IMG/VR virus record: IMGVR_UViG_3300009666_000001
Source of the DNA: a virus
Length of the DNA stretch: 64,000 nt
Direction: 5' to 3' (one strand)
The notes under the pieces were generated by a model. The model was not told where the DNA came from. It was given only the letters and a program-made list of their open reading frames with translations, and made no database searches. How positions within the stretch are numbered: the stretch's first letter is position 1; every line of letters begins with the position of its first letter. Positions 44,505 through 58,874 of the stretch are shown piece after piece. The position numbers and the translations under genes were made by a program.

Positions 44505-47500
44505 TTATAATCCACATACTAATTTTATCTCTCCCTTATCAATAGCTTCTTGGTAAGCTATCTTCTCAATATCTGACAAATATTTATATTGGGGATATGT
44601 CTCATCAAAATTCTTAACGAAGCTTTCCATGTTAGAAGTCTCCGTGTTTAAGTTATTCGCTGTATTTTCTTTATTCAATTCAAATTCATTATTAGCCTTA
44701 ACATCCTCTTTTAAATCTATATCACCGAGTATTTTTGTTCCGGTATCTGCATCTGGAACATATAATTCATCTGTATCATCTGGTTTGCGTAGTAACGCGT
44801 CATCTACTATAGATATCAATTCTTTAAACGCGGATCTATCTATTATATTGGTTTCTCCAGTTCTTATAAATAAATTCCTAACCATGTCAAATAAGAAATC
44901 TATGAACTGAGCAAACACGGATTTAGATAAATCTTTTATATTATCTTCATTATATGCTGGAACAGTACTTAAAAATTCTTGATACACTGGATCTGATATA
45001 GCATATGATATAAACTCTATTGGATCAGAAAGTAAAGTTTGTCTAGCTGCTGAATAATCATCGGGATTAACTTCATCTTGCATGTATGAATTTACATGAT
45101 TAAATAAATTATCAACTTGGTTTTTAAATATATTGTCGTTTTTATATTTATACAACGTGAGAACATGTAATCCTTCATGAATAGCTGTTCTTTCAAAACT
45201 ATTATCATCTAATTGATCAAACGCCCCCGTGTCAACAATTCTACCATCTTCTGTTGTTCTTGTAAACCCATCACATGCATCACCTCTTTCTGTAACTGTA
45301 TTAGATTTAACTTCACTATTATAAATTTTGAAAGGAACGGGTATTGTAATTTGGTTTTTTAACATTCTAGCCAATGCAACTAAAACAGGATCATTACTAT
45401 TCCTTTCTATACTACGCGTAACTACTTGCAGGGTTGTACCTTTTTCATCAGTTGCGCCCGGGATACGTTTTGCATAAGAAGTTTTACCATCTGTAAGATA
45501 AGTATTCCTTGAATAATACCCATCGGTCGATCCATGTGTTTTATAATTTCTACCACTCTTTCTTTTAGTAGTAGTTTTTTTAGTAGTTTTCTTACGAGCA
45601 GGCAGTTGTTTTACAGGGGGAGAATCAAAATACAAAGATGTATTAGGTACATCTTGATAGTCTGCCTGCCCTTCCTCAAAAGTTTGACCCTTACGACCTC
45701 TTCTATTGGTGGTCTTACTCTTCTCTACCTCTATAGGATTATCTAATTTAAACTCGTATTTATTTGAATTTAGTATAGACATCTCTTCTACTTCTTCATC
45801 TGTTGCATCTGGATAATATTCAAAGAACTCTCCACCCAATTTAGTTATTAATCTAAACATCGTAAAATCTTCTGGATCTCTTTCATATAATGCTACAGTC
45901 ATAGGTGCTTTTCTATCCTGATCCCAATAAGACCTCTCATCGCCAATATACATGTTAGCAGATACATAATCAAAGTTCTTATAGTATCCACCACTATCTT
46001 TAATATACGTCTGCATGTATTTTACAGGAAATATATGTCTCGGCACTATATTTTTATTGCTTGCATTATTTCTATATAACTGGCTTACAAAGTTATTTAA
46101 TAGTCTTAATTGGTCTGCCTCGGGCAATTCTACAAATCTCTGTAAAGCAACCGCGGCCATTGGAACAAATATTCTATTAGGTATTACTTCTGAGAATGAG
46201 GTAGGAGATTTCTTATATCCAGATTGTAAAGTATTCAGGTATATAAGACCGTGAACGAAAGCTTTATTATCTTCGCTACTATGATATAGATTATAAATAT
46301 CAGCTTCCATAGCATCCCATTGATTGGTATCAAATTGTTTACTAAACAATGATATTTTATCCAATTCAGAGATGGACTGACTTACTGATAGTTTTCTTGA
46401 TATTACTGCTTCTAATTCATTAATAGCTAAGTTATCCTTTAAAGTATCTTTTACTCTAAGTAATTGTTTTGCTATTGAATTACGACCTTTAAAGATAGAT
46501 CTATATGTTCTTTGCAGATCCGTAGAAGTCATAGTACCAAACATCTTGACTAATAAGAATGATAAGAAATTATTTTCTATTGTATCTATTGCATCTTCAG
46601 CCTTAACTCTTGAAAGTCTTCTATCAGCATTTGCAAATACCGAGTATATATTATCTACAAAGAAATTCTTAATTAATGGACTATAGTTTATTAACGACCC
46701 CCAGGAATAATAATCGCTAGTATCTTGCTTTGTCCTGAAGAACTCACGTATAAGACTTGGATTATCCCCGGTTCCACTAACAGCTTCATATATACTTATA
46801 GGATCAAATATACCCCGTTTACGGATTGTCTGATCGTTTACCTGTACATTAGCATCTACAGCAGATAGATGTCTAGCCAGTGAACTACTTGCATCCGGCC
46901 TTAAGAAACTATTCACGACTCCCATGTTCCAACCAAGTTGATCATACATCATGAAGTTATCAAGTATCTGAACCTGCAATCTAAATAAATCATCATTAGA
47001 TAGATTCTCACCTGTTTTTACATTCTTGAGATCTTCTAATGTTAAATATTTATATCCATATTCATTAATCCTCTTTGATATTTCTTCCTTAGCTTTTATT
47101 ACTCTCGGGTCGCTATCCGTAGCTTTAGCTATCTCTATTGCTTTTAAAGATGAATCTGCTATATCAGAGAACCTCTCTAACTTCTCGTTAGAATTATATA
47201 CTTTTGTTCTCATTTGTATATATTCATCCACGGCATTGGCTACACTTTGTTTATATCCTATAGGAATATCTATGGTTGGATTTAACGTGCTTTTTATTTT
47301 CTGTAAGACAGTCCTGTACTGTTGGTCTCTATTTAATCTAGTGCTAAACTTAAACTTATCTCGTCCAGTGTTATATTGGTTAAAGAACATAAACTGGGAA
47401 GTATTAACCCTCTTTATCTTTAGAAAGTCTTTAACAACATCTTGGCTGTAAAATTCTATAATAGAATCTATACCTACACTGGTATCTCTCCCAAAACGAT

Positions 47501-58874: not shown

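Follow-up and report, generated by a model that had tools for sequence, protein, structure and literature searches.

The window analysed here is a 64,000-nucleotide (nt) stretch of viral DNA (IMG/VR record IMGVR_UViG_3300009666_000001), whose minus strand carries, at 44505..58874, a single uninterrupted open reading frame (ORF) of 4789 amino acids (aa) with an ATG start. The gene very probably specifies, as one chain, a crAss-like phage (order Crassvirales) cargo protein that is carried in the virion and injected into the host; other members of the group encode it in two genes. In particular, homology identifies the ORF as a fused ortholog of gp67 and gp66 of phage phi14:2, the equivalent of gp47 plus gp50 of phage crAss001. 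A first-pass annotation of the window had described one such ORF with a catalytic-loop motif, DFDVD (aa 3593), and two HExxH motifs, HEAYH (aa 1937) and HEGLH (aa 4566); the ORF listing and the translation confirm all of these positions, and the three motifs are the only HExxH and DxDxD matches in the protein.

The polymerase assignment comes from a profile, A1, built from the 4789-aa ORF and five distant homologs. Its sole match in the PDB is the structure of phi14:2 gp66 (6VR4; E = 6.9e-56), over gp66 residues 988-1681, a span that includes the Connector (1095-1238), the DFDID motif (1361-1365), the bridge helix (1529-1559) and the trigger loop (1598-1636), as numbered by Drobysheva et al. 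The same authors give the catalytic motif of the family as DFDxD, with Ile or Val at the fourth position; DFDVD has Val there, and GSDFDVDK is invariant across the ORF and the five distant homologs. By this alignment, DFDVD is the predicted catalytic loop of a virion RNA polymerase (RNAP) of the phi14:2 gp66 type, as had been proposed from the motif at first sight. Two double-psi beta-barrel folds are predicted for the module from homology to the solved gp66. Collinear BLASTP matches and chunked hidden Markov models (HMMs) of the giant ORFs placed only aa ~2715-3860 of the ORF on gp66, at residues 795-1694.

The part of the ORF that precedes the polymerase corresponds to a second gene of phi14:2. 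In BLASTP comparisons, aa 65-579 match gp67 residues 53-531 (E = 9e-46), with collinear gp66 matches next, and a tblastn search of phages with the N-terminal module finds phi14:2 g067 only. gp67 is a virion protein identified by mass spectrometry (MS). Against crAss001, aa 1914-2019 match the C-terminal part of gp47 and aa 3416-3795 match gp50. Because the gp67 and gp66 matches are collinear, both gp47 and gp50 are matched, and the summed length of the latter two (2341 + 2412 = 4753 aa) agrees with the 4789 aa found here, the ORF is identified as a fusion of the gp67/gp47 and gp66/gp50 genes. Judged from these matches, aa 1 to ~2100 are a gp67/gp47-type cargo protein with a zincin-like domain at its end. 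Gene order is the same as in phi14:2, as is the convergent replication module. The first-pass annotation had viewed the ORF as a polymerase joined to several effector domains and as unusually large beside gp66. The former view does not hold for the N-terminal ~2100 aa, which represent a separate conserved cargo protein; the size contrast with gp66 alone is misleading, because gp66 is only one of the two genes that are joined here.

Giant versions of the gene dominate among relatives. Profile A1 finds 401 relatives in IMG/VR (the same search from a single sequence finds none), and in the 80 loci kept from these the ORF bearing DFDxDK is mostly 3200-6681 aa long. RefSeq holds giant versions in cr6_1 (gp36, 4400 aa) and cr113_1 (gp38, 4328 aa). 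In the comparison of split and fused orthologs that the first-pass annotation had called for, the genes are split in phi14:2 and crAss001, and most IMG/VR relatives have a giant ORF. Drobysheva et al. noted that these genes can be joined as one huge polyprotein, and according to a review, RNAP genes reaching ~6000 aa are a hallmark of the group. The giant fused RNAP cargo ORF is already described, and it is the norm in crAss-like phages. Iyer et al. (2017) classed the virion RNAPs (vRNAPs) of N4 as polyvalent proteins with metallopeptidase (MPTase) and accessory domains; here, too, an RNAP, two zincin-like domains and a SLOG-like domain, the domain content expected of a polyvalent protein, lie on one chain in the cargo block, and the analogy with polyvalent proteins drawn earlier is reasonable.

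Comparison of the fused and split genes brought out a rule for the placement of cysteines. The 4789-aa protein has two Cys only, C4534 and C4787, the latter being the third residue from its end (..KLVCGL*), and the next ORF, of 1381 aa, begins MACEDINLTK, with Cys3 encoded at nt 44485-44487. The neighbouring ORF in the C1 position and the C2-like neighbour contain no Cys. Overall, Cys makes up 0-0.15% of the four cargo ORFs (40348-63696, minus strand; 4 Cys in 7773 aa) and 0.4-3.8% of the ORFs of the replication module (563-40072), except for a 181-aa ORF (15685..16230) with none. The same pattern is seen in relatives. In 55 unique complete giant ORFs, Cys accounts for 0.044% of all residues, but 49 of them have a Cys within the last 8 residues and none has one in control windows further upstream; among representative proteins of at least 3000 aa, a Cys lies within the last 10 residues in 101/113, and 61/113 have exactly one Cys in total. 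In the next ORF a Cys, most often the only one, stands at residue 3-6. When the C-terminus of the upstream cargo protein was paired with the N-terminus of the downstream one, both bore a Cys in 47 of 50 pairs and neither did in the other 3, with no discordant pair. All unique adjacent junctions (n = 126) comprise 98 with both, 20 with neither and 8 discordant (Fisher p = 1e-15, phylogeny ignored), and 6 of the 8 discordant junctions consist of a small ORF sitting between two Cys-bearing termini. Internal members of a chain have exactly two Cys, one per end.

Both reference phages obey the rule. In phi14:2 (L002), gp67 ends in ...TIC*; the sole Cys residues of gp66 are C3 and C2179, and that of gp65 is C3. 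In crAss001 (L087), gp47 has C2339, gp50 has C5 and C2404 plus an internal Cys at 1334, and gp49 has C5. Phages cr6_1 and cr113_1 conform as well, and IAS virus does so in part (its gp056 is without an N-terminal Cys). At its internal junction, where the gp67-like part meets the RNAP, the 4789-aa ORF has no Cys pair, in contrast to genes that are truly split. Because crAss001 gp47 obeys the rule from the strand opposite to gp50, the rule acts at the protein level; for this reason, the idea that terminal Cys codons are a DNA- or translation-level junction signal was rejected. Two further observations concern the junctions. Small ORFs of 159-224 aa without terminal Cys occur at Cys-bearing junctions in three loci (L022, 9557-10057; L025, 5045-5719; L058, 4386-4865) and may be mobile genes that landed there. 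One relative only (L009, 1740-7874 and 8117-14740) has the gp67-like part and the RNAP apart, with a gap of 240 nt and without a Cys pair; a recent split, an intron or an error in the sequence could account for this.

The pattern of terminal cysteines suggests disulfide partners along the cargo chain: gp47, gp50 and gp49, in this order, in crAss001; gp67, gp66 and gp65 in phi14:2; and the 4789-aa and 1381-aa proteins here. We tentatively propose, giving it a little less than an even chance, that crAss-like cargo proteins are joined head to tail by disulfides in the virion, leave it as a single thread and come apart when the bonds are reduced in the cytoplasm. In N4-like ejection proteins, suppression of Cys has been ascribed to passage through the periplasm, and the scarcity of Cys in the 4789-aa protein fits such a passage, because the periplasm is oxidising. 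Disulfides in the crAss001 virion have been reported only for tail and portal-vertex proteins. The crAss-like phage literature that we examined makes no mention of terminal cysteines in cargo proteins, and the pairing rule is possibly unreported.

Both HExxH motifs lie in homologous zincin-like domains, in agreement with the peptidase modules noted at the outset. In domain 1, an alignment of 47 diverse IMG/VR sequences (A3) has the invariant columns Y, H, E, H, E, A and F; Y-HExxH and a Glu 35 residues past the second His (E1976, in EExLAExF) are present in 47/47. Invariance of HExxH together with the downstream Glu is a gluzincin-type signature. Domain 1 is shared by 780 representative proteins, almost all of which are 3200-6581 aa long, and 113 representatives of at least 3000 aa bear it; a word-index search with the domain gave a single match. 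Its profile aligns with crAss001 gp47 residues 2101-2208 (hhalign, Prob 98, E = 1e-13), which marks it as an ortholog of the gp47 C-terminal domain. Domain 2 aligns with phi14:2 gp65 (Prob 93, E = 3e-7), with which it shares the motif EFIS..S.P, and with domain 1 (Prob 92.7, E = 4e-7); by these matches it is a paralog of domain 1 and a homolog of the gp65 zincin, described by Drobysheva et al. as a zincin-like protease. An AlphaFold2 (AF2) model of domain 1, built from short proteins found in the representative search and good only for aa ~1880-1989, has a core with a predicted local distance difference test (pLDDT) score of 81-95 and, over that range, elements in the order expected of a zincin (sheet, active-site helix, Glu helix), which hints at such a fold. 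A comparison of the domain 1 profile with Zmp1/PPEP-1 is weak (E = 0.53).

The only lineage-specific feature of the 4789-aa ORF is a DprA/SLOG-like domain in the Connector of the polymerase. The C-terminal boundary of the insert maps pairwise to gp66 residue ~1175, inside the Connector and between the two barrel domains. The insert has no counterpart in the five distant homologs and is absent from the four closest IMG/VR relatives (L003-L006), which have every other module. AlphaFold models aa ~3165-3375 as an independently folding alpha/beta domain (pLDDT 88.5), and at the PHROG level the region is DprA/SLOG-like (phrog_768, 'DprA-like', E = 5.5e-7), which supports, at that level, the earlier reading of aa 3175-3350 as SLOG-like. 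Two Gly-rich loops, SGAATGAD and DGGTGYAVQ, show almost no variation among 35 homologs. The motifs run in the order SGGAxGxD ... GGTG ... GIGTRE, and from this order a circular permutation could explain the lack of superposition on PDB structures. There is a weak structural match to a predicted pithovirus DprA (E = 0.068), and a profile of the SLOG-like family has no match in the PDB. The base composition and codon usage of the insert are within the range of the remaining ORF; this, with the recurrence of variants, argues against foreign or chimeric DNA.

The DprA/SLOG-like domain is a portable module, here at an unusual site. It occurs at varying positions in 19 other giant ORFs and in RefSeq cr113_1 gp38, where it lies at the C-terminus (annotated 'DprA-like'); in cr113_1 and 18 other loci it is N- or C-terminal of the polymerase and never in the Connector. 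Moreover, the N4-like vRNAP of Klebsiella phage Pylas (L083) has a homolog of the insert at aa ~983-1158 (36% identity, E = 7e-26; nt 9001-9525 within the vRNAP coding sequence, 6052-17511), which is an independent recruitment of the SLOG-like module by an unrelated kind of virion polymerase. Stand-alone homologs of 205 aa are found at 8001-8618 of L088 and L089, on megaphage-like contigs of 587-656 kb, with two NUDIX genes, a metallophosphatase, RecA and a ligase-like gene within ~6 kb and many small unknown ORFs. In IAS virus (L085), the gene directly upstream of the RNAP gene (6405-8918) is annotated 'molybdenum carrier', a name applied to a SLOG-superfamily protein.

The relation of the ORF to characterised systems can be summarised as follows. 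With gp67, gp66 and gp65 of phi14:2 (6VR4) it shares gene order, convergent layout, the gp67 N-terminus, the gp66 core, the gp65 zincin and the pattern of terminal Cys. The two differ in that gp67 and gp66 are separate in phi14:2, without a zincin domain between them, whereas here they form one chain that has one; in that the gp65-type zincin is on the RNAP ORF here but on the downstream protein in phi14:2; and in the SLOG-like domain, which gp66 lacks. The similarities with crAss001 include zincin domain 1 near the C-terminus of gp47 (HEAFH 2157), DFDVD in gp50, and matches of gp49 and gp46 to the neighbouring ORFs; gp47, gp50, gp49 and gp46 are all virion cargo by MS. In crAss001, however, the genes are split, gp47 is on the opposite strand, and both the SLOG-like insert and the second zincin are missing. 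A matching layout is seen in the uncultured crAss-like phages cr6_1 and cr113_1 and in L003-L006, in which a single ORF of 4300-4700 aa is followed by one of ~1380-1560 aa and then by the convergent replication module; L003-L006 have every module in common with the window, including both HExxH domains, except the SLOG-like insert. The vRNAPs of N4-like phages (Schitoviridae) resemble the ORF as giant injected polymerases that are Cys-suppressed and carry a zincin MPTase and variable accessory domains. Their polymerase fold is unrelated to the two-barrel fold predicted for the 4789-aa ORF, the N4 virion RNAP having a T7-like single-subunit fold, and the Pylas vRNAP, with 0 Cys, is without the terminal cysteines of crAss-like cargo.

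These comparisons allow a mechanism to be proposed. A virion location and a role in early-gene transcription have been described for phi14:2 gp66 (Drobysheva et al.), and a model of cargo storage and ejection has been published for crAss001. By analogy with both phages, the 4789-aa protein would be made late and stored in the capsid. The cargo might then pass through the tail before the DNA in a partly unfolded state, with the gp67/gp47-like N-terminal part leading; C4787 would be disulfide-bonded to Cys3 of the 1381-aa protein, so that the cargo would leave as one covalent thread. In the cytoplasm, the polymerase would refold and transcribe early genes, and the zincin domains may act in cis after entry, freeing or activating it. 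The SLOG-like domain could be an accessory delivered early, which binds or degrades a nucleotide immune signal or binds single-stranded DNA.

An alternative that deserves consideration, although we regard it as somewhat doubtful, is that the ORF encodes a true polyprotein whose own zincins cut the K/T/S-rich linkers (aa ~1700-1860, ~2160-2200 and ~4390-4445) at maturation or in the capsid, yielding separate gp47-like, RNAP and peptidase products like those of the split genes in other phages. It has been stated that the fused form 'is likely cleaved' (Drobysheva et al.), and autoproteolysis by the MPTase of polyvalent proteins has been proposed (Iyer et al. 2017). Moreover, the low-complexity linkers fall at module boundaries, and the HExxH and Glu residues are invariant, as in an active peptidase. 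However, the MPTase-bearing vRNAP of N4 is packaged unprocessed (Iyer et al. 2017), the linkers have no conserved cleavage-site motif, and the termini of the split genes bear a Cys pair, which suggests selection for covalent continuity in the virion; the terminal-Cys rule thus argues against cleavage before ejection.

Rather less likely, in our view, is the reading of the ORF as a polyvalent carrier of effectors, as offered by the first-pass annotation. On such a reading, the zincins would digest host proteins or peptidoglycan, and the SLOG-like domain would destroy or sequester nucleotide immune signals such as those of the cyclic ADP-ribose (cADPR) type. The mobility of the SLOG-like domain, found in 19 other giant ORFs, cr113_1 gp38 and the Pylas vRNAP, accords with such a role, as do the stand-alone copies adjoining NUDIX genes on phage-like contigs of ~600 kb; degradation of cADPR-like signals by viral SLOG domains has been predicted in the literature, and digestion of peptidoglycan has been suggested for the gp65 zincin (Drobysheva et al.). 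On the other hand, the extra length of the ORF is mostly a conserved structural or ejection cargo protein, the substrates are purely conjectural, and domain 1 occurs almost throughout the family, as would suit a housekeeping function in cis more than an arms-race effector.

It is improbable that the HExxH domains are catalytically dead and serve a structural or zinc-binding function, for example in encapsidation. The lack of a match to any curated peptidase family would be consistent with this, as would Foldseek matches to ImmA/IrrE-like proteins that include a transcription regulator (only at E 0.012-0.13) and the requirement of the MPTase-containing region of N4 for encapsidation (Iyer et al. 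2017); yet both His, the catalytic Glu and the downstream Glu are invariant in the 47 aligned sequences and are also kept across the two paralogs and gp65, as expected of a functional gluzincin site. Finally, an assembly or frameshift artefact joining adjacent genes, or a chimeric SLOG-like insertion, although suggested by the metagenomic origin of the window and by the four closest IMG/VR relatives without the insert, is effectively refuted, as the exact protein is encoded on 4 contigs, its 90% cluster comprises 7 distinct variants of identical length (4789 aa), found on at least 31 contigs that come from JGI, ENA and Logan, the fused architecture recurs in L003-L006 and many representatives, the internal junction is without a Cys pair, and the composition of the insert is in range. 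Assembly fusion, which the first-pass annotation had named as grounds for abandoning its reading, is thereby excluded.

Several points weigh against the single-chain, injected cargo protein that we favour. Packaging, ejection and activity of the 4789-aa protein are all proposed by analogy, and the double-psi barrel fold of its RNAP comes from homology; the outer parts of the polymerase (corresponding to gp66 1-795 and 1700-2180) have diverged too far for alignment, and the Connector insertion might conceivably compromise the enzyme. The disulfide link is drawn only from the joint occurrence of the cysteines, in related sequences that do not count as independent. Neither zincin domain matches a Pfam or NCBIfam peptidase model, even at E = 5, and the best PDB neighbours of domain 1 in Foldseek, a Mycobacterium tuberculosis regulator (presumably PrpR, with its ImmA/IrrE-type domain) and the IrrE-type protease PprI, are sub-significant (E 0.012-0.13). 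For the insert, SLOG membership is weak outside PHROGs: the Pfam DprA model (DNA_processg_A, 0.044) and a SLOG model related to cpYpsA (YAcAr, 0.038) are sub-threshold at best, and a Foldseek search of the PDB with the insert model gave no match at E <0.1 (template modelling score, TM <0.3).

The features of the ORF and of its immediate neighbours are collected in Table 1.

Table 1. Features of the 4789-aa ORF and adjoining cargo genes (columns: feature; residues; window coordinates in nt; strand; basis)
Conserved N-terminal module, phi14:2 gp67 homolog	1-620	57015..58874	minus	BLASTP, tblastn
Only hydrophobic segment	186-206	58257-58319	minus	hydropathy
Charged helical region with discontinuous coiled-coil-like segments	~560-1440	54555..57197	minus	heptad periodicity heuristic, TIGR02168, composition
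S/T/K-rich low-complexity linker	~1690-1860	53295..53807	minus	composition
Zincin-like domain 1; HEAYH 1937-1941, invariant E1976 in EEFLAEEF	~1880-2030	52785..53237	minus	alignment, hhalign, AF2
Predicted two-barrel virion RNA polymerase module, gp66/gp50-like	~2200-4390	45705..52277	minus	homology
DprA/SLOG-like alpha/beta insert, flanked by K/T-rich and acidic linkers	~3150-3396	48687..49427	minus	alignment, PHROGs, AF2
Predicted catalytic Mg-binding loop DFDVD, aligned with gp66 DFDID 1361-1365	3593-3597	48084..48098	minus	alignment
K/T-rich linker (..ARKKTTKKTTTKRKSGRN..)	~4385-4445	45540..45722	minus	composition
Zincin-like domain 2; HEGLH 4566-4570 and downstream PIEFISYAISDP motif	~4520-4670	44865..45317	minus	hhalign
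Cys4787	4787	44514..44516	minus	translation
Upstream cargo protein 2 (C2, crAss001 gp46-like), 474 aa, 0 Cys		58877..60301	minus	Pfam crAss_CARGO2 E 2e-7; BLASTP gp46 E 1e-5
Next cargo ORF, 1381 aa, crAss001 gp49/phi14:2 gp65-like		40348..44493	minus	BLASTP gp49 E 4e-8, gp65 E 8e-4

Domain databases reveal little of this organisation. Pfam, NCBIfam and PHROGs scans of the whole ORF and of nine segments are almost blank, megablast against phages gives no match, and phmmer of the whole ORF against the PDB returns noise only. The N-terminus had been called hydrophobic and Gly-rich; aa 100-300 are indeed rich in A, G, V and L, but a Kyte-Doolittle value of 1.6 is reached by one 19-aa window only, so that just the segment listed in Table 1 is truly hydrophobic. 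Similarly, the coiled coil of ~700 aa described earlier is not one stretch: by a crude periodicity test, heptad-periodic, charged, Pro/Gly-poor segments lie at aa ~560-770, ~980-1190 and ~1366-1435, and the region matches the NCBIfam SMC model TIGR02168 weakly (E = 3e-5). The S/T/K-rich linker of the first-pass annotation is present, and a second S/T/K-rich low-complexity stretch lies at aa ~4404-4443. Similar K/T-rich strings (TKSKKTTKT, KKKSPPKTNNTETKPTSKS and KKTTKKTTTKRK) stand at three module boundaries, at aa 3157-3179, 1715-1740 and 4425-4440 (nt ~49338-49406, 53655-53732 and 45555-45602); they could be flexible linkers or processing sites, with no conserved motif established.

On the minus strand, the 4789-aa ORF is preceded by an ORF of 1129 aa and by the 474-aa C2-like ORF. 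BLASTP against crAss001 pairs the latter with gp46 (C2) and the 1381-aa ORF with gp49. The 1381-aa ORF is without HExxH, and a degenerate zincin in it was considered and is not supported by hhalign. A plus-strand replication module, which encodes a TROVE-like RNA-binding protein, DnaB, a primase, a ribonucleotide reductase and PolA, converges on this block; the PolA is closest to those of crAss-like phages. Taken by homology and layout, the minus-strand block is a Crassvirales cargo block. The replication module also contains three tRNA genes on the plus strand, Leu-TAA, Met-CAT and Gln-TTG (21160-21249, 38915-38988 and 39128-39200).

Taken alone, the 4789-aa gene is one more giant RNAP cargo ORF of the Crassvirales and adds little. 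It does show that a whole domain of 200 aa can be accommodated in the polymerase Connector, and the presence of the SLOG-like module in both crAss-like and N4-type polymerases points to a function in the first moments of infection. The terminal-Cys rule bears on how some 700 kDa of protein are ordered and threaded via the crassvirus tail, as well as on the cleavage of the 'polyprotein'. If the proposed disulfide chain is real, the product of the giant ORF would probably be uncleaved before ejection, and gene fusion, which provides a peptide bond, and gene splitting, which is accompanied by a Cys pair, would be interchangeable means of keeping the cargo chain continuous.

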